Shown: piece by piece, positions 19,957 to 57,479 of the stretch
Layout: every line of letters begins with the position of its first letter
Position numbering within the stretch: the first letter of the stretch is position 1
Sequence record: AB910393.1
DNA from: Pseudomonas phage KPP25
Direction: 5' to 3' (one strand)
DNA length: 64,000 bases
Program-made: the position numbers and the translations under genes
Notes under the pieces: model-generated
What the model was told of the DNA's origin: nothing
What the model saw: only the letters and a program-made list of their open reading frames with translations
Database searches by the model: none

Positions 19957-21828
19957 TCATGCGCTCATGTGACTGCCGTTCCCGACGCCGCGCAGGATGT
20001 CGGACAACTGCTGCGCAACGGTGCGATCCCCGCGACGCGGCCGGCGCGCGGAAAGAGGGAGCGGTGGGTTCTTAGTAAGGATCAGCTGTGCCATCCATGC
20101 AAGCGCGTCGACTATATCATCGTGCCGGCCTACCGGGAATCGAAGGAACTCAGCCTTCATCGTCTCGATCCAGCGAGCGCCGCGGCGCAGCGTGACCATG
20201 TGGTTCGCCATACGGCCCTGGAGCGGCCGGGCACGTGCCGATTTATCGGTCAGCGGCTTCAGCAGTTCGACCTTGACGTAGATTTTCCGCCGCTTGGCCT
20301 CGGCTTCGAAATACGGCCTGATCGACTTCCAAATCTGCCCATCTTCCACGCCCAGGACGGGGTTGTGCGACTTGTACCGCTGCACGGTGTCGAGTATGGC
20401 CGTGACCACCTTCGAGCTGTCCCCTGTGCGCATACGGATGATGTCGTCGACGTGGATCGTGTCGTTCGGCATGTGCAACCCGGCGGCGATGACGGTGTAG
20501 TCACTGGTCTGCTTCTCGGTGATCGCGAAGTCCACGGCGATGTACGCCGTGCCGTCGTAGCGCTCGTCCCCAGGGTCGTGCTCGATGAAGTAGTCCGACT
20601 TGAAGTATTCCCCGTCGTCCGGCACCGGGTTCTGCTGGTACAGGCTGTTCCAGTCCCGTGCGTGCAAAATCCGTTTCAGATTGAGCAGGTACTTCCGGCT
20701 GTACCGGGCTTCGTGCAGAGCTTCCCCGGCCTTCCTGAACGGTACGGCGCCGGGCAGCGGTGAGTCGACGATCGTATCGTCCTGGGTCAGCCACTCGTCG
20801 TTCTCGGCCAAGGCAGCGAAGTTGACGATCTTCCATTTCTCGTACTCAGGATCTTCCTGCATCGCGGCGCAGAGCCGGCCGGACAGGTCATCATCGTGCC
20901 AGCGGGTGTTGATCAGCAGCACGCCGCCGCCGGGGGTCAAACGAGTCAGCGCCGTCGAGGTGTACCAGTCCCAAGTCTTCTCCCGGATCGTCTCCGAATC
21001 CGCCGATTCCCGGTCCTTGAACGGGTCGTCGATGATCAGCATGTGGCAGCCCATACCAGTCACGCCGACGCCGACGCCCGCGGCACGTACACCGCCGCCT
21101 TTCGATGTGGCCCAGTCATCGATACGCTCGTTGACCAGTTCCAAGTCCGGGAAGATCGCCCTGTATTCCTGGCTCTTCACCGTGCTGAGGATGTCGCGGG
21201 ACATCTTCTCGGCCAAGTCCATGCCGTAGCTGGCCAGGATGATCCCTGCCTCCGGGTATTTCCCCAGCGCCCAGGCTGGGAACTTCCGGCTGGTCTGCTC
21301 GGATTTCCCGTGCCGCGGCGGGAACGTGACCATGACGCGGGGCGACCGCCCATTCATGGAGTCGTCGAGAAATTGCTCCAGTACGCGCGCCAGGATCTCG
21401 TGGGCGACGGCTACCTCGTACTTCGAGTTCATCTTCTGCACGAACGGGAGGAACCGCCGGCGCATGAGCGTGCGCTCGGCCATGATCTTCTGCGCGGCGG
21501 CCAGCTGGTACTCGTGGCTATCCCGGCTGACGACCCCGATACTGCCGTCCTCGTAGATCACGTGGGCCGAATTCGACCGCGTGTTCTCACGCATGATCTT
21601 CGGGTTGGCGCGGGGCTTCTTCTTGTCGATCCGGTCTTTCTTCAGCTTGGCCGTTTTCGGGATCGGCACGGTATCGACAGGATCGTTCGCTACATCGACG
21701 ATCTTGTTCCCTCGGCCGGCGACGCGGCAGGACAGACAGATCCCGGTGCTGTGCCTGGGGGTATAGATCGGCGATTCGCACTTCGAGCAGTGCCAGCGCG
21801 GCTTACGCTCACTCGACGTATTCGGCAT
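19957..21828 (-). CDS. terL: Terminase large subunit, 623 aa.
   Basis: Walker A (PRHGKSE), Walker B (MLIIDDP), a C-terminal nuclease region and a GAAGGAG RBS. Confidence 0.85.
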   Translation of the reverse strand: MPNTSSERKPRWHCSKCESPIYTPRHSTGICLSCRVAGRGNKIVDVANDPVDTVPIPKTAKLKKDRIDKKKPRANPKIMRENTRSNSAHVIYEDGSIGVVSRDSHEYQLAAAQKIMAERTLMRRRFLPFVQKMNSKYEVAVAHEILARVLEQFLDDSMNGRSPRVMVTFPPRHGKSEQTSRKFPAWALGKYPEAGIILASYGMDLAEKMSRDILSTVKSQEYRAIFPDLELVNERIDDWATSKGGGVRAAGVGVGVTGMGCHMLIIDDPFKDRESADSETIREKTWDWYTSTALTRLTPGGGVLLINTRWHDDDLSGRLCAAMQEDPEYEKWKIVNFAALAENDEWLTQDDTIVDSPLPGAVPFRKAGEALHEARYSRKYLLNLKRILHARDWNSLYQQNPVPDDGEYFKSDYFIEHDPGDERYDGTAYIAVDFAITEKQTSDYTVIAAGLHMPNDTIHVDDIIRMRTGDSSKVVTAILDTVQRYKSHNPVLGVEDGQIWKSIRPYFEAEAKRRKIYVKVELLKPLTDKSARARPLQGRMANHMVTLRRGARWIETMKAEFLRFPVGRHDDIVDALAWMAQLILTKNPPLPLSARRPRRGDRTVAQQLSDILRGVGNGSHMSA

Positions 21829-22507
21829 CTTCGGCTCCTTCGATTTCCTCGGCCGACAAGATCCGGCTGTTCTCTTGGATCACCTTCAACAACTCGGCGT
21901 CGGTCTTGGTCTGCATCTGCGCTGCGATCTGCGCCGCGCCGCCGGTGATCTCGATCTTGACCTTGGCCTCATACATCCCGTGCATCAGGCCCAGTTCCCG
22001 GTAGCCGGCGATCATCGTGCGGGGGTCAGCCATCTGCCGGGCGATGGCAATGGCATCCCGGAACCCATGGATGATCTCTTCGCGCGTGACCTCGCTGATT
22101 TCCATGTTCTTTTCGAAGAGCGTACGCAGCGCGCGCTGTACGCCGACACGGTTCATCAGCTTCTTGGCATCCGCCGCGGGGGAGGGGAAGTTCGCGCCGG
22201 CGGCGGCATCGACAGGACTCTGCCCCTGGGCCACACGGATGCAGAACTCCCTTTCCATCGGGTCAAGGTCCATCAGGGACTTCGCGCGGGTGCGCTGGAG
22301 CTTGTAGTGACGCTGCTCGTCAGGGTCGACGAACGAATGCTCCGACTTGACCTCAGCCACTGCGGTCGATGCGCGTGACATGGCGGTGGCCGCCTTGGTT
22401 TTCGAGGGCGGCCGCCGGGAAGTGGCCTTGGTAGCGGTTGTCTTGGTAGCGGTTGTCTTGGTAGCGGTCTTGGTGACCTTGGTAGCGGTCTTGGTGGTGC
22501 GTGCCAT
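21809..22507 (-). CDS. terS: Terminase small subunit, with N-terminal (T-K-T-A)n repeats.
   Basis: It lies upstream of and overlaps terL. It has a helix-turn-helix-like core (FCIRVAQGQSPVDAA). The second ATG has a GGAG RBS. Confidence 0.6.
   Translation of the reverse strand: MARTTKTATKVTKTATKTTATKTTATKATSRRPPSKTKAATAMSRASTAVAEVKSEHSFVDPDEQRHYKLQRTRAKSLMDLDPMEREFCIRVAQGQSPVDAAAGANFPSPAADAKKLMNRVGVQRALRTLFEKNMEISEVTREEIIHGFRDAIAIARQMADPRTMIAGYRELGLMHGMYEAKVKIEITGGAAQIAAQMQTKTDAELLKVIQENSRILSAEEIEGAEDAEYVE
22424..22497. repeat. Imperfect 12-15-bp tandem repeats (CTTGGTAGCGGT...) encoding the TKTATKTTATK tract of terS.
   Basis: Direct inspection. Confidence 0.7.
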
Positions 22508-24082: not shown

Positions 24083-24313
24083 ATGACCTTGCTCGCTCGC
24101 TACAAGACCTTCGTTTCGGTTCTCAACCGTGTGCTTGCTCTCAAGTTCAGCCTCGGCTTGATCATCTTCTGCATCACCTACGTCGGCATCAGTGCCTTTG
24201 GCTTCTATGCCTTGTGGTTCACCTACGGCTGGTGGTGCGTACCCATCCTCGCTGGCGCTACCGTGGTCATCTACTACACGCAGCGCTTCTTCATCGACGC
24301 CATCTTCATCTGA
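24083..24313 (+). CDS. Small membrane protein, 76 aa, two TM helices.
   Basis: GGAG RBS and a hydrophobic sequence. Confidence 0.55.
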   Translation: MTLLARYKTFVSVLNRVLALKFSLGLIIFCITYVGISAFGFYALWFTYGWWCVPILAGATVVIYYTQRFFIDAIFI

Positions 24314-24381
24314 CCTACCGTGCGCGCTGCGGAGCAGCGCGCTCTCTGTCTCTACGCATTCATTCACTTCGAGGATCTACC

Positions 24382-24663
24382 ATGTCCACTTTCGCTGCTC
24401 TGAAGAACCTGGGTTCGGCCATCGTCTCCGACATCGCTGCTGGCGCACGCGCGACCGCATCTGCAACCAGCTCGGCCTACGAGTCGGTCAGCGCCAAGGT
24501 CGCGCACAAGCGTGGCGAGCGCCAGATCATCAACGAGTTCCGCAACATGCTGAACGAACATCCTGGCGAGCTGCTGGCTGCGATGCGCAGCATTCAGGAT
24601 CAGCTCGCACAGCCGGCCAAGCCTGCACGCAAGCCTCGCGCTCGCAAGGCGGCTGCACAATGA
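24382..24663 (+). CDS. Hypothetical protein, 93 aa.
   Basis: GAGG RBS. Confidence 0.5.
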   Translation: MSTFAALKNLGSAIVSDIAAGARATASATSSAYESVSAKVAHKRGERQIINEFRNMLNEHPGELLAAMRSIQDQLAQPAKPARKPRARKAAAQ

Positions 24664-24857
24664 GCCAGTCGCAGGTCAACGAGTTCCTGGCTCTGCTCCA
24701 GGCCAACCGCCAGCTGATGGCGCAGCTGTCCGAAGCATTCGGCACTGCGCTTGAAATGGCCGACCACCACATGGCGAGCGCATCGCGGCACATGGCTCGC
24801 ATCAACGACGAGCTGCTGGCCGCGGTGCATCGCATCGAGAATCCATCGCAGGTCTGA
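24660..24857 (+). CDS. Hypothetical protein, 65 aa.
   Basis: ATGA overlap with the upstream stop. Confidence 0.45.
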   Translation: MSQSQVNEFLALLQANRQLMAQLSEAFGTALEMADHHMASASRHMARINDELLAAVHRIENPSQV

Positions 24858-24933
24858 CGACGAGGGCGCACCGGGAGGTGCGCCCCTTTTTGTCGTTGTG
24901 GCAATTCCGCCACTTTATATAGGACTCCGTACC

Positions 24934-25725
24934 ATGACCTACATCACCGATCTGCTCGATTCCAAGTCCCCGGCTGCTCTGGCTGCTCTGCGCACCACTG
25001 CGAACAGCTGCCTGATGCGTGCCGTCAACCAGTCACTGCGGCTGGCGCGCATCGAGCTGCGCAACGTCGGCGCTGGCATCGACGGCGCGAACAACCTGCG
25101 TGCCAACGCCGACGCCGCTAAGGCTCGCGCGAAGCAGCTCGAAGGCGCTGGCAAGCAGGGGATCACCGCTGAAGAGATCATCCAGCGCAACTTCCGCATG
25201 TACTACGCGATCGCTGTACGCCTGGAAGACCGCGACAACGAGTACGAGCGCGCCATGACCGTCGATCAGGCGTTCGAGCTGGTAACCACGCCGCGCGACA
25301 GCAGCAAGTTGTCGCAGTCCGTGGAGCTGGCTGCACTGTCGAAAATCTCCGGCATGTCGCCTGAAGACATCCTGAAGATGCGCGACCTCGACGCCCGCCG
25401 GTTCGCCGACTCGGCCAAGGATGCGGTGCCGCTGGCTCGCACGCTGCTCGACGACGTTTCCCACAACGGCGTCGGTGAGGACGAGCTGTTCCTCGAACTT
25501 CCGGTCCAGCAGCAGTTCCAGACCTTCGCCAAGGCAACCGAGGCTGCGGTCATCCAGCTGCAACGCGACACGCAGCGTGCTGCTCGCTTCCTCGAAAGCC
25601 CGGTGCGTGCTCTGCGTGACCTCGCGTTCAGCGACGTGACCGTGAGCAAGGCCGATGCGGACTCCCTGGAGAAACAGCTGGAGCACTTCATCGTCACCCA
25701 CAAGTCCGAACTGGAATTCATGTAA
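24934..25725 (+). CDS. Hypothetical protein, 263 aa.
   Basis: AGGACTCC RBS. Confidence 0.55.
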   Translation: MTYITDLLDSKSPAALAALRTTANSCLMRAVNQSLRLARIELRNVGAGIDGANNLRANADAAKARAKQLEGAGKQGITAEEIIQRNFRMYYAIAVRLEDRDNEYERAMTVDQAFELVTTPRDSSKLSQSVELAALSKISGMSPEDILKMRDLDARRFADSAKDAVPLARTLLDDVSHNGVGEDELFLELPVQQQFQTFAKATEAAVIQLQRDTQRAARFLESPVRALRDLAFSDVTVSKADADSLEKQLEHFIVTHKSELEFM

Positions 25726-25801
25726 ACCCTGGCGCTCGGCTCTTCGGAGTCGAGCGCCTTTTCCGCGTTCTACCCTCAACCACCAACCGCGCCTGGGCGC
25801 T

Positions 25802-26218
25802 ATGGACATCACTATGGACATCATCAAAAGCAACACCAACGAAGTCGACACCGACGCTGTAATGGAAGAACTCCACAACATCATGGCCAGCTACGCCGAG
25901 CGCGGCATATTCCTGTCGCTCTACTTCACCACCAACATCGAAATCGTCAACAAGGACGGCAACGATTACGGCTTCCGTGCTGCACGCGGCATGGTCAGCG
26001 TACCGGGCTGGGTGCATGGCGGTGGTATCGGCGCTGTCCTGAGCGCTATGGGTGAAGGCGTCGAGTTCACCGACAACCCGATCACCCTGGTGATGCGCGC
26101 TGCTCAACATGCCGCGGCGCACCAACAACTGATCACCGAGCACATGAATCAGGTGGGCGAAATCGGCCTGATCCAGCTTGTGGATAACTCCAAGTTGGAC
26201 GTGGTGAAAGCCGACTGA
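25802..26218 (+). CDS. Hypothetical protein, 138 aa.
   Basis: ORF with an in-frame ATG. Confidence 0.5.
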   Translation: MDITMDIIKSNTNEVDTDAVMEELHNIMASYAERGIFLSLYFTTNIEIVNKDGNDYGFRAARGMVSVPGWVHGGGIGAVLSAMGEGVEFTDNPITLVMRAAQHAAAHQQLITEHMNQVGEIGLIQLVDNSKLDVVKAD

Positions 26219-26242: not shown

Positions 26243-26275
26243 GGAGGGGGCCGACCCGCCCCCTTCTCCCCTCCG
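26243..26275 (+). terminator. Candidate terminator hairpin (AGGGGG-ccgacccg-CCCCCT) with a weak T/C tract.
   Basis: Direct inspection. Confidence 0.35.
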
Positions 26276-26339
26276 CCCTTTCTGTATCGATCGCTAACCT
26301 AAGTGGTTGTTTCTTGAAACCAATTAGCTTTTTCTATCG

Positions 26340-26880
26340 CTGTAACGCTTTCGTTCCAAACAGGATGAGACTGACTCTCAACAACCGTCACGATGTTACG
26401 AAATTCCGTCCACCGACGAAAATTTCGTAACACGCTCCAGCCCAGGCAGCACTAGGGGCACAGAGCTTTCTGTTACGATGTTACGATCTTTTCTTCTTTA
26501 TTCCACTACAGAAAATAAAAAAATAATAATAGATATAGTTAATAAGTATATAGGGCCACATATACACTGTATCTGTAGCGGAATAGCGCAGAACTTCGTA
26601 ACATTCGTGACAAAAGTGGCTCAAACCCGCGTGGCACTAAGGCTCCAGCGTGTTACGAAATTTTTTGAGATCGTGACAATCGTGACAAAATTTCCCGGCC
26701 AAAACCCCGCAAACCCGCGTGGCACTAAGGCTCCAGCCTGTTACGAAATTTTTTGAAGATCGTGACAAAACCTCGGTGTCACCCGGCACAAACCCGCGTG
26801 GCACTAAGGCTCCAGCGTGTTACGAAATTTTTTATGCACTTTCCGTCACTCCGTGACCAGATCCTTCATTTCAGTCATCC
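26340..26880. promoter_or_regulatory. AT-rich composite repeat cluster A, a candidate early promoter array and/or replication origin.
   Basis: It contains GTTACGAAATT paired with AAATTTCGTAAC as a palindrome, a GTTACGATGTTACGAT direct repeat, CTTTATTCCACTACAGAAAATAAAA with an A/T tract, and CGTGACA repeats. It also has three tandem 79-87-bp units each carrying the CGCGTGGCACTAAGGCTCCAGCGTG motif. A homologous cluster lies at 58230-58560. Confidence 0.6.
26624..26870 (+). repeat. Three tandem units (starts 26624, 26711 and 26790) of AAACCCGCGTGGCACTAAGGCTCCAGCGTGTTACGAAATTTTTT.
   Basis: Direct inspection. The three cores are identical except for a single g/c difference. Confidence 0.8.
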
Positions 26881-26894
26881 ACAGGAGCCTGGAA

Positions 26895-27098
26895 ATGCGC
26901 GTCCGCGACGTTCTGTTCTTCGCCATTTTTGCTTTCTTCGTCTTCATCGCCATGGCCATCTTCGTTTATGCCCCGGCAAAGGCCAGGAAAGCGCATTTCG
27001 AGGCGTGTTCAGCGCAAGGTGGGGTGTTGGTATACACCCGGTACGAAACCCCTCTATGCGTGAAATCTGACGCCTTCCTGTCCATCCCTAACTATTAG
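26895..27098 (+). CDS. Small membrane protein, 67 aa.
   Basis: AGGAG RBS and a hydrophobic helix. Confidence 0.5.
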   Translation: MRVRDVLFFAIFAFFVFIAMAIFVYAPAKARKAHFEACSAQGGVLVYTRYETPLCVKSDAFLSIPNY

Positions 27099-27109
27099 GA
27101 GATCACCCC

Positions 27110-27436
27110 ATGTTCGTCGACGCTCTGGCCTTCGGTTTCATGGCTGCCATCGGCATCTTCATCCTGCTATGGCGTCTGCCTCGCATCCTCGTCCTGCATC
27201 TGCTGGGTATGGGTTTCCTGCTCGACACGGCGTTCACCACCCTGGTGTTCTGGATGCACTGGGGCACAGCCATCGGCATGTTCGTCGCCACGATCGGCGG
27301 TCTGTTCGGGTCCGCCGGCATCAGTCTGGCCAAAGGCGTGCTCGGCTCGATCGACTTCAAGACCAAGCAGTACAAAGCTGGTTGGTTCGGTGACCGTCGC
27401 CCGCCCGAGTACAAGACCACTCCGCCGGCCAACTGA
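27110..27436 (+). CDS. Membrane protein, 108 aa, three TM helices.
   Basis: AGGAG RBS. Confidence 0.55.
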   Translation: MFVDALAFGFMAAIGIFILLWRLPRILVLHLLGMGFLLDTAFTTLVFWMHWGTAIGMFVATIGGLFGSAGISLAKGVLGSIDFKTKQYKAGWFGDRRPPEYKTTPPAN

Positions 27437-27510: not shown

Positions 27511-28587
27511 ATGCCGAGCTACGCCGATTACCCCATGCCTACTAAACACAAACGCTTGATCACCAAAGTCGAGGTATCGAAAGCGTTCGAGGCTGATCTG
27601 GACAACCACCTCCCGGTAGTGAGTGAATTGGCCAAGGTCAGAACCTACGCAGACTATGGACTGCGTGGCACGTCCAGCTACGACTCGTATGTGAATGGTT
27701 TCGACTTCGACAAGTCCAACGCTCCCGACGCTATTCCGTATATCGGCTCGAAGGCCCAACTCGCCAAAGCCAGGACACAACACCATGGCTTGTTCGACAA
27801 GCACGTGTTCAACCTGGCTTTGGCTCGTCACAACCCCAACCCCGGCACCCTCATGAAACCTTCTAGAAGCCGACTCGACCGGTCCATGTGCTACAGCCAG
27901 TTCACCGACTGCTTCTTCGACGACTGCCTTTTTCAAAACATCGATATAGTCGACGCAACATTTACGAACTGCGTTTTCTTCGGTTGCACGTTCAACAACT
28001 GCGCTAGCTACCGCACCAAGTTCGTCAACTGCATTTTCCTCAGTACGTTTTTTCAAGAAGGCAAGTGGGCGAACGCCAAATTCACCGGCTGCAAAATGTA
28101 CAGGGTACGCTTCTGCCTATCGACACATTCCGTCTCTACGTCGATGCCACAACTCGAATACGTTCAGTTCTACATGTCGAAACTCGTAGACGTAACCTTC
28201 GAAGGCGATATCTTCTATGACACTATCTTTCCGATGTCCCACTTGATCGGCGTGGCCCTGATAGATGTCGACCTAGCGAACGTGGATATGCGCACAGCAC
28301 TCCACGTCGACATCGAAAGCATGCGCGGATGCAGGCTCAGCCGACCGAATCCGACGCAGTTCATGTCGATGAACATCCACGACTACCCGATCGTGTACAC
28401 CTCGAACGTCATACAGATCGGTTGTCAGGCGTTCAGCATGGACCAGCTACGCCACTGCATCAGCATGGAAACGCAGGAGCTGTACCAGCTGGCTTCCGAT
28501 GCGCCGAGATTGGTGAAAGCCCACCTGAAGTGGCTGCTCAAGACCATCGAGCGCTTCAAACCCAAGCCGCTCCCGTACGAGTGCTGA
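27511..28587 (+). CDS. Pentapeptide-repeat protein, 358 aa.
   Basis: About 20 consecutive A(D/N)(L/F)xx-type repeats (TDCFF DDCLF ... VNCIF). It has an AGGAG RBS. Its GC content is markedly lower than its neighbours. Confidence 0.7.
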   Translation: MPSYADYPMPTKHKRLITKVEVSKAFEADLDNHLPVVSELAKVRTYADYGLRGTSSYDSYVNGFDFDKSNAPDAIPYIGSKAQLAKARTQHHGLFDKHVFNLALARHNPNPGTLMKPSRSRLDRSMCYSQFTDCFFDDCLFQNIDIVDATFTNCVFFGCTFNNCASYRTKFVNCIFLSTFFQEGKWANAKFTGCKMYRVRFCLSTHSVSTSMPQLEYVQFYMSKLVDVTFEGDIFYDTIFPMSHLIGVALIDVDLANVDMRTALHVDIESMRGCRLSRPNPTQFMSMNIHDYPIVYTSNVIQIGCQAFSMDQLRHCISMETQELYQLASDAPRLVKAHLKWLLKTIERFKPKPLPYEC

Positions 28588-29679: not shown

Positions 29680-30336
29680 ATGCTCGACAAGAAACGCGAC
29701 CGAATCCTCGCCAACCAGACCCCGCATGCGCGGAAGGTCTACGAATGCGTACCGATAGCTGAACCCTGGCCGGCGCACCAGATCATGGCGCAGTTGAAAG
29801 TCGATCGTGGTTCTGCCTTGAGCGTCGCGGTGGTTCGTGGCTGCTTGAAGGCTCTGCACGAAGCTGGGCTGATCCGCCGGCCGACCAGCGATCTGTACAT
29901 CCGCGAGAAGGTGACTGAATCGGCGGCCGCCACGATCGCCGAGCAGATGGACGAAACCGTCGCCGACTACAAACGCACAAAGCCAGCCCAGCCAGCCCAG
30001 CCAGCCCAGCCAGCCCAGCCAGCCCAGCCAGCCCAGCCAGCCCAGCCAGCCCAGCCAGCCCAGCCAGCCCAGCCAGCCCAGCCAGCCCAGCCAGCCCAGC
30101 CAGCCCAGCCAGCCCAGCCAGCCCAGCCGAAGGAACCCAGCATGTCCACCTCGATCGACACCCTGCTGAAAATCGCACAGCAGCTTTCTGTCCTGGCCGC
30201 CGAAGTCGAAGAGAAGCTGTCGGAGATCGCATCCGAGATCGAGACGGCGGCCAAGCAGGTCGAGTCCACCACCGCGGCCGATCGTGAGCAGCTGGCCAAG
30301 CTCAAGCAGCTCCAGTCTCTACTGAAGGATCTGTGA
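29680..30336 (+). CDS. Winged-helix DNA-binding protein with a (PAQ)n linker and a C-terminal coiled coil.
   Basis: GGAGAACGTA RBS. It has an N-terminal wHTH-like segment. The 9-bp repeat is translated as PAQ. Confidence 0.55.
29982..30128 (+). repeat. Perfect 9-bp microsatellite (CCAGCCCAG), about 16 copies in 147 bp.
   Basis: Direct inspection. Confidence 0.9.
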
Positions 30337-32051: not shown

Positions 32052-32717
32052 GTGGACGACATCCAAGTTCGGCTAGCCAAGTACAAAGACCGTAAAGAAG
32101 AATCTCGATACTTCAAAACCCTCTTTTACAACTACGGCCTCAGCTTTGGACACCCGAATGGCGGACGTACTCCCGACCGCGGTGAGTTCACGACCTGGGT
32201 CGAACCCTCGCTTCGATTCGTAGGTAACGCGGATTGCTTGGCGCGCATCGGGCGCCGAGGCTGGTACATCGATCTGTTCCAGCACGATGTTGCATATGGG
32301 GAGGTCTATCAGCTCTCGGCCAGGAATGGCGAAGAGCGCTATCTGGCTGCCTACGTCTACAGCTACGACACCGACTGCGTGACGTTCGACATCACTGAGG
32401 TGTTCGACGACAAACGAGAAGCAGCCCTGGCCGCCGACGAAATGGCCAGGATCGCCGCCGAGCATAGCCGCGAAGCTGATCAGGAAGACGAAATCAACCA
32501 ACAGAAAGAAGAGGCGCGTGGACTACGCGCTGAGGTACGCACGCGCATGCGTGCGGTGATCGCCGGACTGCGCTGGAAGCGCCACGCAGCCAGGATGATG
32601 TCGCCGGTCTACATCCCGGACATCTTCAACGTGCTGGCCATGGAAGAATTGAGCCGCGGGTTCGAAGCACGCGCTGAGCTGTACAAGCTTTGGAAGAACG
32701 GACCCGACAATCTATAG
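32052..32717 (+). CDS. Hypothetical protein, 221 aa.
   Basis: GTG start with a GAGGAA RBS. Confidence 0.5.
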   Translation: MDDIQVRLAKYKDRKEESRYFKTLFYNYGLSFGHPNGGRTPDRGEFTTWVEPSLRFVGNADCLARIGRRGWYIDLFQHDVAYGEVYQLSARNGEERYLAAYVYSYDTDCVTFDITEVFDDKREAALAADEMARIAAEHSREADQEDEINQQKEEARGLRAEVRTRMRAVIAGLRWKRHAARMMSPVYIPDIFNVLAMEELSRGFEARAELYKLWKNGPDNL

Positions 32718-38773: not shown

Positions 38774-41179
38774 ATGGACATCGCTTTCCTGTCCGCACCC
38801 GTGCCTCTGACGAAAACGTACAAGCAGCTTCGCGGACGCATCGAAAAATCGAACTACCCGAACACCTCGTCCTTCACCTCCCACACCGAAACACCGAAAC
38901 GCCTCGAAGATTTCTACGCCGCCATCGTCGAGCACGCCAAGCAAGGCCACTGCTTGCTCAAGGGGCAGCTCAATCGAAACCTCGTCGAGGAATCCCGCGC
39001 TGGCTCGACCGAGAGCAACCAAGCCACCGAGTGGGTCTGTCTGGATATCGACGGCCTGGAAGTCGAATCCCCACAAGCGTTCATGGACGCCATCGGTCTT
39101 GGCAGTGTCAGTTACATCGTCCAGTACAGCTCAAGCTATGGGGTACTTGATGACCTGCTGCGCTGCCACATCTTCTGCCTGCTGGACAAGCCGGTCGCTG
39201 CACCGCTGCTCAAGCAGTGGCTGATCGACGTGAACTTCAACACCGAGCTGCTGTGCAGCCAGATGTCCCTCACGCCGAGCGGCAACGGCCTGCACTGGCC
39301 CCTGGATATTACCACCTGCCAGAACGACAAGCTGCTGTACATCGCGCCGCCGAACCTGATCGGCGTGCCTGATCCCTTGCAGCCCGACGAGCGCTACCAG
39401 CTCGTCAAGAACAAGGGTACGCACTTCAAGCTGCCGAAGCAGATCGGCACCGTCAGTGCGAACCGGTCGCGGATTGACGACAAGGTAAACGAGCTGCGCC
39501 TGGAAGCTGGTATGCCCAAGCGCAAGGCGTCGAAGTACAACAGCATCGGCCCCGTCGAGTTCGTAGCGAACCCGGATCAATGCACCGTCACCGGGATTAA
39601 GGAAGACCGTGGTTTCGTCTACCTGAACCTGAACGGCGGCGACAGCTGGGGTTATTACCACCCGGTCGACAAGCCGGACTTCATCTACAACTTCAAGGGT
39701 GAGCCGACCTACAAGACCAAGGATCTGGTCCCGGACTATTGGCACGACCAGCAGCGCAAGGTCGAAGAGGCCGAAGAGTCCGGCGAGGTTGTCACGCATC
39801 TGGCATTCCGCGACTTCAACTCGGCGAAGTATTACAACGGCTGGTATGACCCGGACACACGGGAGCTGGTACTCAAGCAAGCAGCCAGCGAGAAGCAATT
39901 GGCTGACTACATGGCCAGTCAAGGCCGCGCGCTGAGTGATCGAATCCCTATCTGGTCCATGGAGTTCCTGCCGTCCGAGGATTGGACGCTGAACCGTGAC
40001 TATGATCCGCCGGTGATCAACACGTTCGTGCAGAGTCCTTACCTCCAGGCCAAGCGCCCAGCTAAAGCACCGAGTGTGCCGACGCTTATCGCGCGTATCA
40101 TCCACCACGCATTGGGCGGTGACGAAGAAGTAACGGACCGGTTCTACAACTGGCTCGCCGCAGTGATGCAGAAGCGTGTAGCTATCGGCACCAGCTGGGT
40201 GCTCAGCGGCACGCAAGGCACTGGCAAGGGGCTGATCTGCAACAAGATCCTCCGCCCGATCCTGGGCGATACCTATGTCCAGCAGAAGCGCATGGACGAG
40301 TTGGACGAGAAGTTCAACGACTTCATGGAACAGTGCATCTTCCTCTTCGTCGATGAAGTGCAGCTGTCCGAAATGCGTAACGGCCGGGCACTGATGCAGC
40401 GAATCAAGAACCAGATCACCGAAGAACGGATCAGCATCCGCGGCATGCACCGCGCTGGGCAGATGATGGTGAACCACGTCAACTGGGTCTTCTGCACGAA
40501 CATGCCTGACCCGATCTACCTGACCAGTGACGACCGTCGCTTCAACATCGCACCGTTCCAGCCCAACAAGCTGCTGATCACCTCCGAAGAGATCGAAGCG
40601 ATCGAAGACGAGCTGCAACAGTTCTGCGACTACCTGATGATGCGTGAAGTCGATTTCGACCTAGCGCGCGCGGTCATCATGACCGAGCAGCGTGAGCGCC
40701 TGATCAACACCAGCAGCACCAGCATCGAACTGGCTTGCGACGCTGTACGCCGCGGTGACCTCCAGTTCTTCCTCGACGAACTGCCGAGCGATAGCCAGTC
40801 CTTCGTGCTGCCTGACACCATGCTCAAGTTGTCCCAGTACAAGCGTGCGCTTCGTGAAGTCATCGAGCACGCTTCTACGGGCGGCAAAGGCGTAGGGCGG
40901 GATGTGCTCCACACGCTGCTGCGCTACGTGCTACCGGACTGCCCCACGTCCAGCCACAAGTTCACTTCGCTGATCAAGCACCACGGCCTGTACGTGCAGT
41001 CCATGCGTATCGGTACGCGCACCACGCGCGGCATCGAAGTGGACTGGGTGGTCCCGGAAGGTGCCCTCGACCAGATCGATGGCGTCGCCGATAAACCGGT
41101 CAACGACGAGATTTCTCCGAAGACCAAAGCCGAACTGAAAAAGCACCTGAAAGGTGTAGCCGGAGGCAAATCGAAATGA
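38774..41179 (+). CDS. Bifunctional primase-polymerase (AEP-type) fused to a D5-like SF3 helicase, 801 aa.
   Basis: AEP motifs are present: a DxD motif (CLDIDG) and RCHIFCLL. The helicase shows Walker A (GTQGTGKG) and Walker B (FLFVDEV). Confidence 0.7.
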   Translation: MDIAFLSAPVPLTKTYKQLRGRIEKSNYPNTSSFTSHTETPKRLEDFYAAIVEHAKQGHCLLKGQLNRNLVEESRAGSTESNQATEWVCLDIDGLEVESPQAFMDAIGLGSVSYIVQYSSSYGVLDDLLRCHIFCLLDKPVAAPLLKQWLIDVNFNTELLCSQMSLTPSGNGLHWPLDITTCQNDKLLYIAPPNLIGVPDPLQPDERYQLVKNKGTHFKLPKQIGTVSANRSRIDDKVNELRLEAGMPKRKASKYNSIGPVEFVANPDQCTVTGIKEDRGFVYLNLNGGDSWGYYHPVDKPDFIYNFKGEPTYKTKDLVPDYWHDQQRKVEEAEESGEVVTHLAFRDFNSAKYYNGWYDPDTRELVLKQAASEKQLADYMASQGRALSDRIPIWSMEFLPSEDWTLNRDYDPPVINTFVQSPYLQAKRPAKAPSVPTLIARIIHHALGGDEEVTDRFYNWLAAVMQKRVAIGTSWVLSGTQGTGKGLICNKILRPILGDTYVQQKRMDELDEKFNDFMEQCIFLFVDEVQLSEMRNGRALMQRIKNQITEERISIRGMHRAGQMMVNHVNWVFCTNMPDPIYLTSDDRRFNIAPFQPNKLLITSEEIEAIEDELQQFCDYLMMREVDFDLARAVIMTEQRERLINTSSTSIELACDAVRRGDLQFFLDELPSDSQSFVLPDTMLKLSQYKRALREVIEHASTGGKGVGRDVLHTLLRYVLPDCPTSSHKFTSLIKHHGLYVQSMRIGTRTTRGIEVDWVVPEGALDQIDGVADKPVNDEISPKTKAELKKHLKGVAGGKSK

Positions 41180-42000: not shown

Positions 42001-42762
42001 ATGGCCAAGCATATTCAACTCACCAACACCATGCGTGAGCACATCGCTTCGATGCTCATGTGCGAGGCAGCGAAACCGAAAGCGGCGGACCTGATCGCTC
42101 GCGTAACGGATCTCAACGACAAGTTCTGGCATACGCACGCGAAACGTTTAGCCGCGATGGGTATCACTTCCAGTACCTGGCCCGACCTGATCGTGAACGG
42201 CGTATGCACTTCTGTGTTAACCGCCATTCCGTGCTACTACGAAACGAAGTTAGGTCAGTACAGTAGTAGCCGCTCGGAAGATACTTCCCTCAAGACGTAC
42301 GGAGTGTATCCACATATCGCCTTGCGGACTTTCCAAGAACATGGCGTACTCATTCGTAGCCTGCTGAGTTCTGATGCTTTCGCACCGCTTAACAAGTTCA
42401 TCACTACGGAATACAAGTTGAACTACGACTTCAAGTTGAAGTTCGTAGCGTCTGCTACGGTGCCCCGCATCGTCAACATGTCCGTTAAAACCGTGGAGGT
42501 TGCGGGTATTCACCAATCCATGGGTGAGCTGTGCGCTGACATCAACGAAGTGATCCGTGCAGCACTCGACTTCCACAAACAAGCACTCGAACTTCTGCGT
42601 GCGTGCCGCACTTCCAAGCAGCTGGAAGAGCTATTCCCCGAAGCGATGCGGTTCTTGCCGGCCAAAACCCAGGAGAAGAGGCAGGATATCGCGCCTGTCG
42701 AGCTGGCGGCCAATGTCCGCAGCATGCTGAACAAAGGCGTCCCGCCGGTCATCACCAAGTAA
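42001..42762 (+). CDS. Hypothetical protein, 253 aa.
   Basis: GGAGG RBS. Confidence 0.55.
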   Translation: MAKHIQLTNTMREHIASMLMCEAAKPKAADLIARVTDLNDKFWHTHAKRLAAMGITSSTWPDLIVNGVCTSVLTAIPCYYETKLGQYSSSRSEDTSLKTYGVYPHIALRTFQEHGVLIRSLLSSDAFAPLNKFITTEYKLNYDFKLKFVASATVPRIVNMSVKTVEVAGIHQSMGELCADINEVIRAALDFHKQALELLRACRTSKQLEELFPEAMRFLPAKTQEKRQDIAPVELAANVRSMLNKGVPPVITK

Positions 42763-47234: not shown

Positions 47235-47456
47235 ATGAGCGTGACGTTGTACCAGAGCGAACTGATGCGGTGTGAGAATTTGCAGACGGGCAACGTCACG
47301 TACTACATGCAGGTGTGCAACGCGATGCGGAGGATTTCCAAAGCCGAGTACGACGAGCGCTACACCAAGGCTGACGGTCTGACCTGTCTGTACACCAAGA
47401 GAAGTAAACGTTACTGCCGGCATTACCTTACCCTGCTCTACGAGGTGGCGAAATGA
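47235..47456 (+). CDS. Hypothetical protein, 73 aa.
   Basis: AGGAG RBS. Confidence 0.5.
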   Translation: MSVTLYQSELMRCENLQTGNVTYYMQVCNAMRRISKAEYDERYTKADGLTCLYTKRSKRYCRHYLTLLYEVAK

Positions 47457-47818
47457 AGCTCGACAAGATTGCGGCATTGCCTTTCCCTACTTTACAAGGT
47501 GGCGAAATGAAGTTCGACAAGATTGAGTACAGCGTATGCAACGATTGCTTGCTCTTCGTGGCGGACGGTGAACCGCCGGAGAACGGTGCCGACATAGAAG
47601 CCGCGATGCGACGAGAGATCGGCGAAGCGAAGAATGCGTACTTCGTGTGCGGCGTCGAGCCAACCGAAGATGACCCCGATGGGATCGGTGAAAACGAATT
47701 CAGCTGGCAATGGTGCGAACTTTGCCTGAGCACGCTCGGTGGTAGTCGCTACGGCGTGACGTTGATGATACCCCTGGAAGAAGGAACCGAGGATGGCAGC
47801 GCCGAAGAGCCGGACTAA
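47453..47818 (+). CDS. Cys-rich hypothetical protein, 121 aa. It has an alternative in-frame start at 47507.
   Basis: A duplicated block AGGTGGCGAAATGAAG(C/T)TCGACAAGATTG occurs at 47443 and again at 47497. Confidence 0.45.
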   Translation: MKLDKIAALPFPTLQGGEMKFDKIEYSVCNDCLLFVADGEPPENGADIEAAMRREIGEAKNAYFVCGVEPTEDDPDGIGENEFSWQWCELCLSTLGGSRYGVTLMIPLEEGTEDGSAEEPD

Positions 47819-54434: not shown

Positions 54435-54448
54435 CCGCCCTCCAGAAA

Positions 54449-54478
54449 CAAGAAACCCGGCCAGTGGCCGGGTTTTTT
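54449..54478. terminator. Bidirectional intrinsic terminator at the point where the two arms converge.
   Basis: AAACCCGGCC-agt-GGCCGGGTTT hairpin. It has an A-run upstream and a T-run downstream on both strands. Confidence 0.7.
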
Positions 54479-54534
54479 CTTGCATCGCAAGGAAGCGCGA
54501 CAGCAAGGCTCCATACGCAGTGCTCATTTTACCA

Positions 54535-54572
54535 GAAACCCGGCCATGTGTCGGGTTTCTTTTTGCTCTGTA
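54535..54572 (+). terminator. Second plus-strand terminator.
   Basis: GAAACCCG-gccatgtgt-CGGGTTTC followed by TTTTTG. Confidence 0.5.
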
Positions 54573-56801: not shown

Positions 56802-57479
56802 TCACACCTCCAGCGTGATCGCCACGCCAATGTCGATAAATAGAGTAGTAGGGTCGAGCGCGAAGCCTACGATCAGCGAGAACAGCGCGCCAGAGGGAAC
56901 GGTCTGCGTGAGATTGCCATCCTGGCCGAGAAACACGGCACCGGGTGTCCACGCCCACCCGGAGTGCTGCACTTCACCGAGGCGCTGCACATCCACTGTG
57001 CCGCCAGGGGACGCCGCATTCAGCGACAGCCCCAGGGTGTTTATGCGATTGATCAGCGTCGCGCAATCAGCGTACACCACTTGGTTGGCGTCGATCGGTG
57101 CAACCATGCGATGCCCGGACATCGGCACCGACGCCACCTTCTGGATGATCGCGCCGCCGGCCGGGCCGGGTTCACCTTTGTCGCCCTTGCGCCCAGGCTG
57201 CCCGGCCAGGACGACGAACGCCGCCGAGCGCAAGTCCTGCACCTGCTGCGCCCCCGGCTGGATCAGCACCTCGGTAACGGCCTGCGCAGGCGGCAGGACC
57301 ATGGCGGTGTACTCCAGCTGCGACGCTGGCCGCGCCAGGGGCAGGACGATCTCCATGTCAGGGTCACGCACGAGCAACGCCTGCGAGCGCTCCCTAGTGA
57401 CAAGCGCCTGCGGTGTCGATACCGCCACGGACAGGCACTGGCCGACCCGGCGGACGACTAGAGCCTGACCTGCGTTCAT
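56802..57479 (-). CDS. Tail-fibre-like protein with a collagen-like G-X-Y run.
   Basis: AGQPGRKGDKGEPGPAGG (five consecutive G-X-Y triplets). Confidence 0.55.
   Translation of the reverse strand: MNAGQALVVRRVGQCLSVAVSTPQALVTRERSQALLVRDPDMEIVLPLARPASQLEYTAMVLPPAQAVTEVLIQPGAQQVQDLRSAAFVVLAGQPGRKGDKGEPGPAGGAIIQKVASVPMSGHRMVAPIDANQVVYADCATLINRINTLGLSLNAASPGGTVDVQRLGEVQHSGWAWTPGAVFLGQDGNLTQTVPSGALFSLIVGFALDPTTLFIDIGVAITLEV

Follow-up and report, generated by a model that had tools for sequence, protein, structure and literature searches.

Two AT-rich islands of a KPP25-like Pseudomonas phage as putative twin iteron-type replication origins with a shared origin module of probably host-linked ligand

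Phage P4 has two separate loci, ori and crr, on a small genome, both with the same short iteron, the octamer TGTTCACC, and its initiator, the P4 alpha protein, is a primase fused to an SF3-type helicase. In the origin of the staphylococcal pathogenicity islands (SaPIs), an AT-rich stretch lies between two sets of 6-8 bp iterons, on which a Pri-Rep module (primase and SF3 helicase) acts. The oriV of iteron plasmids (RK2 and pPS10 type) and the lambda and P22 origins combine iterons with an AT-rich unwinding element and an extra module for a host factor. A DnaA box is common yet not obligatory in phage origins. To our knowledge, the majority of lytic Pseudomonas phages, among them therapy candidates from the groups of phiKMV, PB1 and KPP25, have no mapped origin. 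Two AT-rich islands in a phage of the last group resemble these systems: as in P4, two separate loci carry the same short iteron and the candidate initiator is a primase-SF3 helicase fusion; as in the SaPIs, two short-iteron sets flank an AT-rich stretch; and, as in oriV and lambda, an extra module that might serve a host factor is present. On balance, the sequence favors twin iteron-type replication origins with a shared origin module, the ligand of which is probably linked to the host.

The window, that is, the whole stretch of 64,000 nucleotides (AB910393.1) analyzed here, holds one full circular map of a KPP25/phiR18-like Pseudomonas aeruginosa podophage (Kochitakasuvirus). Positions 1-300 are identical to 63688-63987; this means that the 64-kb window wraps round and that the genome is 63,687 bp. 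This overlap, the sole terminal redundancy in the window, falls inside the gene of a giant virion protein. The GC content of the genome is 60.2%. The gene arms diverge at approximately 23.8-24.1 kb, and the islands (copy A and copy B) are 2.2 kb and approximately 29 kb downstream of the divergent point. Papers on the phage and its relatives describe it as strictly lytic and describe no plasmid stage.

The first-pass annotation had described two AT-rich islands with an ordered set of sub-elements, and all of these were found in place: the islands are real. Their A/T tracts are the two lowest-GC 50-bp windows in the genome (16% each; the next lowest is 34%). When motif counts were compared with shuffled controls, GTTACGAAATTT gave 8 matches against 0.14 expected, GTTACGATGTTACGA 5 against 0.12, and TCGTGACA 9 against 3.2. 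The palindrome, the direct repeat and the iterons, which had been listed as separate motifs, turned out to be built from a single heptamer, GTYACGA, arranged either in inverted order or in direct order with 8-bp or 9-bp phasing. The window contains 34 copies of this heptamer, where about 20 would be expected over the whole 64 kb; 22 of the 34 are within the two loci, which are stretches of 300-450 bp amounting to about 750 bp in all. At each locus, oppositely oriented heptamer arrays stand on both sides of a nearly pure A/T tract of approximately 55 bp: forward pairs with 8-bp phasing on the left and reverse arrays with 9-bp phasing on the right, in addition to inverted pairs (Table 1).

Alignment of the two islands gave a 139-nt module (26390-26528 and 58253-58391), which is a direct repeat with 77% identity. 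A 20-mer within the element formed by CTTTATTCCACTACAGAAAA and the A/T tract showed no differences between the copies. The shared module (139-180 bp) has the same orientation at both loci, while the flanking genes run in opposite ways, and its orientation with respect to the genes on either side is reversed in the relative L106. This is as expected if the module is independent of the direction of transcription. On the 63,687-bp circle the loci are 31,863 and 31,824 bp apart, in other words near-antipodal. GC skew gave no clear origin signature at either copy.

Table 1. Positions of the features of the two islands and of the candidate initiator gene in the window
Feature	Position	Strand	Remarks
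GC-rich hairpin GGAGGGGGC-loop-GCCCCCTTC	26243..26266	+	Directly follows the stop codon of a small gene (25814-26218); resembles a terminator and bounds copy A on its upstream side; read from the sequence
Weaker second terminator-like site	26288-26309		Terminator scan
Copy A, left iteron block: GTCACGAT-GTTACGA (8-bp direct pair), then palindrome GTTACGAAATT-N14-AAATTTCGTAAC	26387..26431	.	
Copy A, degenerate reverse core (CGCTCCAGCCCAGGCAGCACTAGGGGC)	26432..26458 (approximate)	-	Aligned with the full reverse core in copy B; inverted-repeat pairs
Copy A, direct iteron pair GTTACGATGTTACGAT adjoining the A/T tract	26472..26487	+	
Copy A, CTTTATTCCACTACAGAAAA, then nearly pure A/T tract	26496..26556	.	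Candidate DNA-unwinding element; GC 16% in 50 bp
Copy A, reverse iteron pair TTCGTAACATTCGTGACA, right of the A/T tract	26596..26612	-	9-bp phasing
Copy A, three tandem units of the form AAACCCGCG-TGGCACTAAGGCTCCAGC(G/C)-TGTTACGAAATTTTTT	26621..26833	+	Start-to-start 88 and 79 bp
Copy A, forward cores	26630-26652, 26718-26740, 26797-26819	+	1 mismatch in the core at 26718
Copy B, left iteron block and palindrome GTTACGAAATTTT-N12-AAAATTTCGTAAC	58250..58294	.	
Copy B, full core	58294..58316	-	Points to the leftward gene starting at 58168
Copy B, direct iteron pair GTTACGATGTTACGAT adjoining the A/T tract	58335..58350	+	
Copy B, CTTTATTCCACTACAGAAAA and A/T tract	58359..58415	.	Candidate unwinding element; GC 16% in 50 bp
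Copy B, three reverse iterons (TTCGTGACA x3), then truncated reverse core (CTTAGTGCCACGCGG)	58466..58509	-	9-bp phasing; truncated core (about 58495-58509) corresponds to approximately the first half of a full one
Copy B, direct iteron pair GTCACGATGTTACGAT at the end	58528..58543	+	
Candidate trans-acting initiator (putative): AEP-primase/SF3-helicase fusion	38774..41179	+	801 aa

The 23-bp core CGTGGCACTAAGGCTCCAGCGTG has four matches in the genome against 0 expected. Three forward cores in copy A and two reverse cores in copy B had been claimed; the three forward cores stood, and copy B proved to have one full and one truncated core. Copy A has an additional, degenerate reverse core, which had not been listed. 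The consensus is CTGAAA-S-CC-N-CG-Y-GGCACTAAGGCT, in which CG-Y-GGCACTAAGGCT is the invariant block. In copy A, each core is followed by an inverted heptamer pair, and one or two reverse iterons (ATCGTGACA) come after each of tandem units 1 and 2. The full core of copy B is within an imperfect hairpin, CGCTG..AGCC-loop-GGCT.CAGCG (DNA fold of -7.1 kcal/mol; shuffle mean, -4.7). A known structured RNA family was rejected: at copy A, Rfam covariance models gave only chance-level matches, to microRNA models, and at three other loci they did not match the core.

Relatives of the phage were searched for the motifs, and the same element map was found in phiR18, YMC17/07/R4900a (YMC) and the IMG/VR fragment L074. 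A distant relative, IMGVR_UViG_3300009026_000010, with 28-72% protein identity in BLAST matches to this phage, retains GTTACGA clusters, the palindrome, direct pairs and the ACAGAAAA/T-run tract at both syntenic intergenic sites. L106 keeps the ATTACGAAATT/ATCGTAACA sites as well as ACTACAGAAAA and the A/T tract, and L009 and L034 keep ACAGAAAA and the T-run. A second core variant, taken from L106, gave only chance-level matches in phages. In relatives still further removed, whose giant protein is 44-46% identical, the genes are ordered differently and the copy B gap is missing.

The core is not private to KPP25-type phages. It was found in phiKMV-likes, PB1-likes, the phages Persinger and KP1, P4-like satellites, plasmids and a lambdoid prophage, where the invariant block recurs beside differing, replicon-specific iterons and A/T tracts. 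Judged from these sequences, a core motif of 15-26 bp marks origin-like regions in ten or more replicon lineages that are unrelated and have iterons of their own. In a P. mendocina plasmid the order is AT-rich repeats, the core, four copies of GGCTACAGATTCAATG and a perfect DnaA box, TTATCCACA. The core of the Pantoea prophage is among TTACCAACAGA repeats, adjoins an A/T tract, and lies inside a 300-aa, initiator-like ORF immediately 5' of a DnaB-like helicase gene. In pPSEST02 and pHS87b it is at most a few hundred bp downstream of VapE or toprim+DUF927 primase-helicase genes; pPSEST02 has two cores, both flanked by GTGGTGGGAT iterons around an A/T tract. In L004, L005 and L078 it is found beside a DUF5906 primase-helicase gene, at the 3' end, and AACTGGGACAA is present there in 10-11 copies. 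The core of the PB1-likes is in a gap of approximately 960 bp adjoining a gene annotated as DNA primase in PA5, and the same layout is seen in Persinger and KP1. In a T7-like metagenomic contig, the core comes right after the RNA polymerase gene, which is the position of the primary origin in T7.

The core-like motif is absent from 5,426 E. coli genomes, P4-like elements included. When 185,579 bacterial species genomes were searched for the core 20-mer, there were 0 matches; a CRISPR repeat or attachment site is thereby made less likely. A full-text literature search with motif strings and described origins gave nothing relevant and no description of the core. When the proteomes of phiKMV, 14-1, L078 and others were compared with the window by BLAST, no shared DNA-binding candidate was found. 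It should be mentioned that a 221-aa protein (32052-32717) is common only to the window phage and the L004/L005 group. AAA_14/DUF4143 ATPases adjoin the core in two plasmids, which was judged to be coincidental. Low-GC phages of the L037 type, which have ATCGTAAC pairs beside a D5-like primase-helicase, were rejected as kin: protein similarity is confined to the Walker region (E = 0.004), so that the identical iteron is probably a convergence.

A replication origin was among the options raised by the first-pass annotation, and it is supported by the layout, by the conservation of both sites in the distant relative and by the origin-like settings of the core elsewhere. Both loci have a cluster of repeated short sites, which are predicted initiator sites, and an adjacent AT-rich candidate unwinding element: the lowest-GC tracts sit between the arrays. 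Two loci with the same iterons, together with an encoded primase-helicase, correspond to a bipartite arrangement of the P4 type. No DnaA box of the TTATCCACA type or other recognizable host-factor site was found at copy A or copy B; CTTTATTCCAC at the loci departs from a DnaA box by one inserted base. We consider it somewhat more probable than otherwise that the islands are two origins, or one origin and a second cis-acting iteron locus as in P4, and replication would then start at the islands.

In this mechanism, a phage-encoded initiator would bind the GTYACGA arrays that face each other across the A/T tract. The loaded arrays would melt the tract, where the replicative helicase would assemble. 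Binding and unwinding might both be done by the phage's own AEP-primase/SF3-helicase fusion, which is the best candidate because of the analogy with P4 alpha, SaPI Rep and viral SF3 initiators. The protein has an N-terminal archaeo-eukaryotic primase (AEP/PrimPol) fold, a beta-rich middle region, a D5/DUF5906-type SF3 helicase and a C-terminal domain. A point against the origin reading is that its gene lies 12-17 kb from either locus, whereas several comparators have the element right beside their primase-helicase gene. Family and homologue searches of the phage proteins gave nothing usable as another heptamer-binding protein and no further DNA-binding candidate. The core would be a separate module. 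Since unrelated replicons with their own iterons share the invariant block, its reader is most likely not encoded by the individual phage, and the docked factor is probably a host factor. A replicon-specific primase is unlikely to read the core, because the replicons sharing it have quite different primases (toprim/DnaG-like, VapE). The fixed polarity of the core may set the place or direction of a start: priming, loading or transcription into the origin.

The main rival reading, which we regard as rather unlikely, is that the islands are regulated promoter/operator regions. The core, or the core together with GTTACGAAATTTTTT, would drive the middle genes at copy A and the tail-fibre operon at copy B; host RNA polymerase modified by a phage factor would read the core, and GTYACGA would be the operator or activator sites of an early phage transcription factor. 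The setting speaks for this and must be counted against an origin: both loci come right after hairpins that end the upstream gene and right before a co-directional gene block, and the gene-proximal cores aim at those genes in the window, YMC and L106. This setting fits promoters equally well. The reverse core of copy A is decayed, and no gene would lie in front of it; the three tandem units resemble tandem early promoters, and the inverted heptamer pair after each core of copy A is operator-like. That the core follows the downstream genes, as had been noted before, is true of this genome but does not hold generally: in phiKMV and the PB1-likes it runs antisense to its neighboring genes, in the Pantoea prophage it is inside an ORF, and the plasmid core is inside an origin-like region. 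In phiKMV, the core is immediately upstream of, and abuts, a published 20-bp promoter motif for the phage RNA polymerase but is not the motif itself; this motif matches that of P001, an antisense promoter reported for LUZ19 in PMC10914365. The text of the transcriptome paper on 14-1 reports no antisense RNA for 14-1. Within this genome, the core is not a general middle or late promoter, because it is confined to the two loci. The absence of a phage RNA polymerase, claimed earlier, agrees with the proteins tested: no RNA polymerase family was found among the large proteins by Pfam, PHROGs and PDB sequence searches, and for the 2,111-aa virion protein a PDB search returned no relative and a motif check none of the catalytic motifs looked for. 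A promoter for a T7/phiKMV-type or an N4-type virion RNA polymerase was judged unsupported, as no matching gene was found. Early promoters of the host RNA polymerase, another earlier proposal, were not supported either: the forward units have no acceptable sigma-70 site, the only one being a 9/12 site on the opposite strand of copy A (TTGTCA-17-AAAAAT), the copy B repeats have none, the counts are at shuffle level, and the loci are distant from the divergent point. The sigma-54 consensus (TGGCAC-N5-TTGC; -24 GG and -12 GC, 10 nt apart) was tested as well. The -24 half, TGGCAC, is perfect, and phiKMV, the Pantoea prophage and L095 read TGGCAC-TAAGG-CTGC. However, the window has CC at -13/-12, and more than 30 core instances have CC, GC, CG, AG, TC, AC, CA or GT there, with an invariant "spacer" TAAGG, which is the opposite of the sigma-54 pattern. 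In addition, the motif is absent from the genomes of E. coli, which has RpoN; sigma-54 was rejected as a general explanation. Promoter and origin could coexist, as in a transcription-activated origin like the T7 primary origin.

Two further readings concern the handling of the genome. Pac sites such as those of P1 and SPP1 have short-repeat arrays flanking the cleavage region, and the islands resemble them; they could be sites of the small terminase subunit round a cut, or the inner boundary of collapsed terminal repeats. The core of phiKMV is approximately 320 bp inside the left terminal repeat, and papers on relatives report no physical ends for this phage group. We nevertheless regard a packaging signal or physical end as highly improbable: two equivalent loci half a genome apart are ill-suited to a single pac site or end, neither adjoins the terminase genes (19957-22507), and the overlap inside the giant virion-protein gene is the wrap of a circular map. 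Elsewhere the core belongs to replication modules, being in an origin-like region of a plasmid, in a lambdoid initiator-like gene and beside primase-helicase genes. Alternatively, one protein might bridge the arrays or form a centromere-like complex, and its role would be to fold or segregate the genome during replication and not to initiate it. Ribbon-helix-helix centromere or operator arrays are short direct and inverted repeats, like the 7-9-bp arrays here, and the same array type occurs near-antipodally not only in this phage but also in YMC (118 bp off) and the distant relative (approximately 230 bp off, if the contig is complete). This pairing role seems very unlikely. The proteins tested included none resembling ParA, ParB or ParR, a strictly lytic phage is an awkward host for it, and the A/T tract and the shared core, both pointing to unwinding and replication, would be left unexplained.

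Several other identities of the core were rejected. The CbrB/NtrC-type enhancer is TGTTAC..GTAACA; the spacing is wrong, and other phages pair unrelated iterons with the same core. By eye, against the consensus sequences, there was no fit to a tRNA-like element, CRISPR repeat, attP/attB, dif, parS, Chi, CIRCE, LexA, IHF, Fis, a MOBQ nick site or a phage-nick consensus. The resemblance to a G4-type primase origin is only loose (CTGCAAAGCC...GGACTAA).

Returning to the replication origins, a wider view may be offered tentatively: the core might be a portable origin adaptor for one cellular replication factor of Pseudomonas and some other bacteria, combined in KPP25-likes with two opposite origins. 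The core would have been combined with replicon-specific iterons in unrelated lytic phages (podo-, sipho- and myoviruses), in P4-like satellites, in a lambdoid prophage and in iteron plasmids. The site of the cellular factor would be absent from E. coli, and two opposite origins would halve the replication time. A link of the core to the loading of the replicative helicase in bacteria without DnaC is speculative. The islands supply testable origin coordinates for one phage family. If a host factor reads the core, it would be a shared dependency of many P. aeruginosa phages, satellites and plasmids and possibly a determinant of host range; the core would then be a handle for computational origin prediction and a simple bait to pull the factor from cell extracts. 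Given the near-antipodal placement of the two equivalent loci, one may ask whether selection can act on a phage genome to give it two symmetric origins.

Among the known systems, the core regions of the P. mendocina plasmid and the Pantoea prophage have exactly the oriV/lambda-type build. Plasmid iterons are 17-22 bp, whereas those of the window are 7 bp at 8-9-bp phasing; there are two loci here, without the DnaA box, and no description of the core as an oriV component was found in the searched literature. The core origins of SV40 and papillomavirus, with SF3 helicase initiators, belong to eukaryotic viruses; the structural match is too weak to count, and many more sites are present here, over 300-450 bp. 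At the T7 primary origin, as here, tandem oriented units adjoin an AT-rich region. Unlike T7 and the phiKMV-LUZ19 P001 case, no phage RNA polymerase was found in this phage, and the core lies upstream of the phiKMV promoter motif. The single-strand initiation signals ssiA and ssiB of RSF1010 are read by an AEP primase, RepB', but the hairpin is absent from the three forward cores of copy A, phiKMV and the PB1-likes. The SaPI layout also matches L005 and L037, in which element and primase-helicase gene are immediate neighbors; the SaPIs differ in having a single origin directly 3' of rep, an unrelated host and sequences, and no shared GC-rich core. P4 has an octamer instead of a heptamer, its loci are approximately 4.5 kb apart and not antipodal, and the protein here has the AEP primase fold, unlike the P4 alpha type. 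The P4-like Pseudomonas elements pPSEST02 and pHS87b carry the same core as the islands, downstream of their primase-helicase genes.

Copies A and B, the two AT-rich intergenic islands, contain all the sub-elements that the first-pass annotation had described there, and each of them occurs far above shuffled expectation: the core gave 4 matches (0 expected), GTTACGAAATTT 8 (0.14), GTTACGATGTTACGA 5 (0.12), and TCGTGACA 9 (3.2). When the islands were aligned, a 139-nt direct repeat with 77% identity was found (26390-26528 and 58253-58391). The unusual AT-richness was also confirmed: among all 50-bp windows of the genome, the two with the lowest GC content (16% each) fall in the A/T tracts, against 34% for the third-lowest and a genome mean of 60.2%. 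However, the palindrome, direct repeat, and "iterons" are not distinct sub-elements but different arrangements of one heptamer, GTYACGA. Copy A holds 13 of the 34 GTYACGA sites of the window, and copy B holds 9. Forward pairs are phased by 8 bp and reverse arrays by 9 bp, and the arrays closest to the A/T tract are opposed across 116-124 bp. The core, which had been said to occur twice reversed in copy B, is present there as one full reverse core, the second being truncated. Copy A has an additional decayed reverse core, which aligns with the intact reverse core of copy B.

Alignment of more than 30 instances of the core gave an invariant block, CC-N-CG-Y-GGCACTA(A/G)GGCT, followed by two freely variable bases 3' of GGCT. 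The left flank, often CTG(A/G)AA(G/C)CC, forms an imperfect inverted repeat with GGCT(C/T)CAG on the right side. A hairpin from these flanks is predicted for the contigs L004, L077, and L079, for phage Persinger, where one compensatory change (G:C to A:T) is observed, and for copy B of the window. The three copy A cores, phiKMV, and the PB1-like phages lack it, and the fold energies showed no significance against shuffles. Therefore, the structure is optional, and sequence recognition primary.

Positions 1-300 of the window are identical to 63688-63987. This means that the window covers the 63,687-bp circular map once, with 313 further bases. The wrap junction is within the giant virion-protein gene, so the identity comes from the way the map was assembled or recorded and is not a biological repeat. 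According to the annotation of the related phage YMC17/07/R4900a (YMC), which is collinear with the window, and the concordant ORF listing of the window, two gene arms diverge from about 23.8-24.1 kb. As a result, copies A and B are each located between two co-directional genes, yet on opposite arms. In the 2,111-aa virion protein, no Pfam domain, PDB relative, or searched RNA-polymerase motif was found; its best conservation is in the last 320 residues (64% identity with a distant relative). The pentapeptide-repeat protein encoded downstream of copy A is unusual for the early region of a lytic phage; elsewhere, this fold is known as a DNA mimic acting on gyrase. The Nmad5 domain in the replication module hints at modified DNA bases in the KPP25 phage group.

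Features of the window and of the comparison loci (i, iteron; arrows, orientation)
Feature	Position	Strand or direction	Description
Copy A	~26.3-26.9 kb		i> i> <i i> i> (A/T) <i <i CORE> i> <i <i CORE> i> <i CORE> i>
Copy B	~58.2-58.6 kb		i> <i <CORE i> i> (A/T) <i <i <i <CORE(half) i> i>
Minus arm, first part		leftward	terminase, major structural protein gene, tail genes
Minus arm, wrap part	58634 to about 1282	minus	2,111-aa virion protein; arm then crosses copy B
Minus arm, end	58168 down to about 54129		six tail-fibre and structural genes
Plus arm, start	24083-26218		five small genes; copy A next
Plus arm, after copy A	26895-54297		early and replication genes
Convergent terminators	54.45-54.56 kb
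Same terminators, as back-to-back pair	54444-54567		two inverted-repeat hairpins (AAACCCGGCC...GGCCGGGTTT) where the arms meet
Gene 3 downstream of copy A	27511-28587		pentapeptide-repeat protein, 358 aa (Pfam Pentapeptide_4/_3)
Tandem repeat in early ORF 29680-30336	29981-30133		perfect 9-bp AGCCAGCCC, about 17 copies, coding a three-residue repeat; ORF length varies among relatives
Nmad5 gene, replication module	42001-42762		253-aa protein with Nmad5 (nucleotide modification associated) domain
54-nt direct tandem duplication	47418-47525		89% identity; includes ribosome-binding site and start codon (GGTGGCGAAATGAAG); small ORF thus has two alternative or duplicated starts, 47453/47507
Copy B equivalent, L009			between homologues of the giant virion protein and 57479-58237
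Copy A equivalent, L034			between homologues of 24718-25722 and 27092-27433
L106 core region	2120-2330		flanks retained, centre replaced: CTGAAACCCGCG-TCCTAGAGCGGT-TCCAGCC-TGTTACGAAATTT
phiKMV core	nt 733-754	minus	between 414-bp terminal repeat and early promoters
14-1 (L084) core	nt 59210-59232	antisense	in ~960-bp non-coding gap (58934-59896) after ORF74
L004/L005/L078			AACTGGGACAA, 10-11 copies, including a 9-bp-phased triple; AT-rich spacer; end of DUF5906 primase-helicase gene adjoins element
L080			TTTGTCTC repeats beside core
L079			17-mer, two copies, beside core
L077			36%-GC contig; core 3' of stop codon of upstream ORF
pPSEST02			two cores, each with flanking GTGGTGGGAT iterons around A/T tract
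pHS87b			P4-like element with toprim, DUF927, and P2-type capsid genes; core amid GGGAAC repeats
P. mendocina plasmid			order: AT-rich repeats, core, four 16-bp iterons, perfect DnaA box

Four phage records matched copy A in BLAST at 97-98% identity: CRPAP1904, two records of phiR18, and YMC. All are KPP25-like podophages infecting Pseudomonas aeruginosa (genus Kochitakasuvirus). The element maps are unchanged in phiR18, YMC, and the fragment L074. When IMG/VR was scanned with GTTACGATGTTACGA, mainly single matches at chance level were obtained. The 62,440-bp contig IMGVR_UViG_3300009026_000010, whose proteins show 28-72% identity to those of the window, has six matches at two places, both syntenic with the window copies. 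Each place (L009 and L034) contains 7-13 GTTACGA sites, a palindrome, direct pairs, and a ACAGAAAA/T-run tract. L106, a further KPP25-like relative whose giant protein is 65% identical in its C-terminal part, retains ATTACGAAATT/ATCGTAACA sites and ACTACAGAAAA with an A/T tract, and its module is flipped relative to the flanking genes. The replaced centre of its core is similar to that of L034 (CTAGAGCGG), so the core may exist in more than one version. In more distant relatives, at 44-46% identity, the copy B gap is absent and the gene order is different. The two-locus design is therefore old in the KPP25-like lineage, though not universal in the wider family.

The two loci (26496 and 58359) are separated by 31,863 and 31,824 bp, 19.5 bp off the exact antipodal position. 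The deviation is 117.5 bp in YMC and, by coordinates on the 62,440-bp contig, about 230 bp in IMGVR_UViG_3300009026_000010 if this contig is complete and non-redundant. Since the placement was noticed post hoc and the related genomes are non-independent, it should be regarded as a lead, not a result. Two origins that fire together would account for it, and so, equally well, would one origin with a pairing partner.

The core was also sought in other phages. BLAST of a 32-mer against 50,697 phage records matched 174, all of them Pseudomonas phages, including all four Kochitakasuvirus records, about 78 phiKMV-likes (22/22 identity), about 75 PB1-likes, Persinger, and KP1. In phiKMV (nt 700-760; L081/L083), the core, directly followed by GGTTATGTCACACACAATGG, stands immediately 5' of a match to the 20-bp promoter motif published for the phage RNA polymerase (LUZ19 P001; PMC10914365). 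The core of the phiKMV-likes is directed to the left genome end amid repeated CTCCCTGGGTG-like motifs, and this region could be their origin. The gap of the PB1-like myoviruses (in PA5: L082, locus positions 1300-1560) is AT-rich, with a 10%-GC tract and AATTACC/TACCAAA repeats; in 14-1 a weaker core-like copy (GGCACTAAGCCT) lies about 190 bp off on the opposite strand. The PA5 homologue of 14-1 ORF74 is annotated as DNA primase. In Persinger, the core is accompanied by GTGACCA/TGGTCAT iterons and an A/T tract.

Exact scans of metagenomes and IMG/VR located the core in unrelated contigs, generally beside a repeat that is different each time, except in the low-GC contigs L006 and L095, where iterons are not evident. 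The end of the upstream ORF of L077 resembles, by eye, the C-terminus of a T7-type RNA polymerase. Among plasmids and satellites, the core region of pPSEST02 begins about 110 bp 3' of a VapE primase-helicase gene. A 20-mer of the core had no match in 185,579 bacterial species genomes, and a 19-mer matched five contigs. One of these belongs to a Pantoea prophage; its core has TTACCAACAGA repeats on both sides and adjoins an A/T tract, and this region is wholly within a 300-aa ORF just 5' of a DnaB-like helicase gene, the layout of the lambda/P22 ori. No match was found in 5,426 complete E. coli genomes. It should be mentioned that a heptamer identical to that of the window was found in unrelated 30%-GC phage contigs (L037, 4220-4470; also L030 and L041), as ATCGTAACATCGTAACA pairs 77 bp apart beside an A/T tract. 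They are directly 3' of a 655-aa ORF, which has the Walker-A region in common with the SF3 primase-helicase of the window (domains by eye); the proteins are alike in the Walker region only.

Among the functions that had been proposed, copies A and B most likely represent a replication origin, as three converging lines of sequence evidence suggest. One short site occurs in many copies, as opposed arrays around an easily melted tract, which is the build of an iteron origin. The same build is conserved at both positions in the distant relative, where protein identity has fallen to 30-60%. In addition, the core reappears in places that are origin-like on independent grounds: with iterons and a DnaA box, inside a lambdoid initiator-like gene by a helicase gene, and beside primase-helicase genes of satellites and phages.

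The alternative that the copies are promoters has real support. At both loci hairpins precede and gene blocks follow; the gene-proximal cores of the window, YMC, and L106 are directed at the downstream genes, the copy A core facing no gene is the decayed one, and the phiKMV core adjoins the sequence that matches a mapped promoter motif. The earlier statement that the core follows the direction of the downstream genes holds for these gene-proximal cores, but in phiKMV and the PB1-likes the core is antisense to all flanking genes. Host-RNAP early promoters are disfavoured, as no acceptable sigma-70 promoter is found in the repeat units. For sigma-54, the -12 element is unconserved, whereas the supposed spacer is conserved. 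As had been noted, no phage RNA polymerase was found among the proteins tested. Furthermore, the core is restricted to copies A and B within the genome, lies inside an ORF in the Pantoea prophage, and is placed between iterons and an A/T tract in the P. mendocina plasmid. Both roles may be combined, as at the T7 primary origin, with the core launching transcription or priming that runs into the origin.

Iteron origins as such are well known. The 7-bp unit, its duplicated near-antipodal arrangement, and, above all, the shared core appear to be new, or at least undescribed in the searchable literature. The core connects lytic phages of three morphotypes, satellites, a lambdoid prophage, and plasmids.

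For the putative origin, the iterons differ in each replicon and the core is common; thus, the iteron reader should be replicon-specific and the core reader shared. The core-bearing phages have no detectable common protein, the annotated phage matches are confined to Pseudomonas, and E. coli is without the motif. This makes a host factor confined to certain taxa a likelier core reader than a universal factor like sigma-54 or DnaA. For the iteron reader, the best candidate is the 801-aa protein encoded at 38774-41179. Its residues 413-669 match a solved phage primase-helicase, and it has a DUF5906 D5-type helicase signature; its middle domain is beta-rich, and there is a further domain at the C-terminus. 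As a candidate iteron binder, this protein may be likened to P4 alpha, SaPI Rep, and the viral SF3 initiators.
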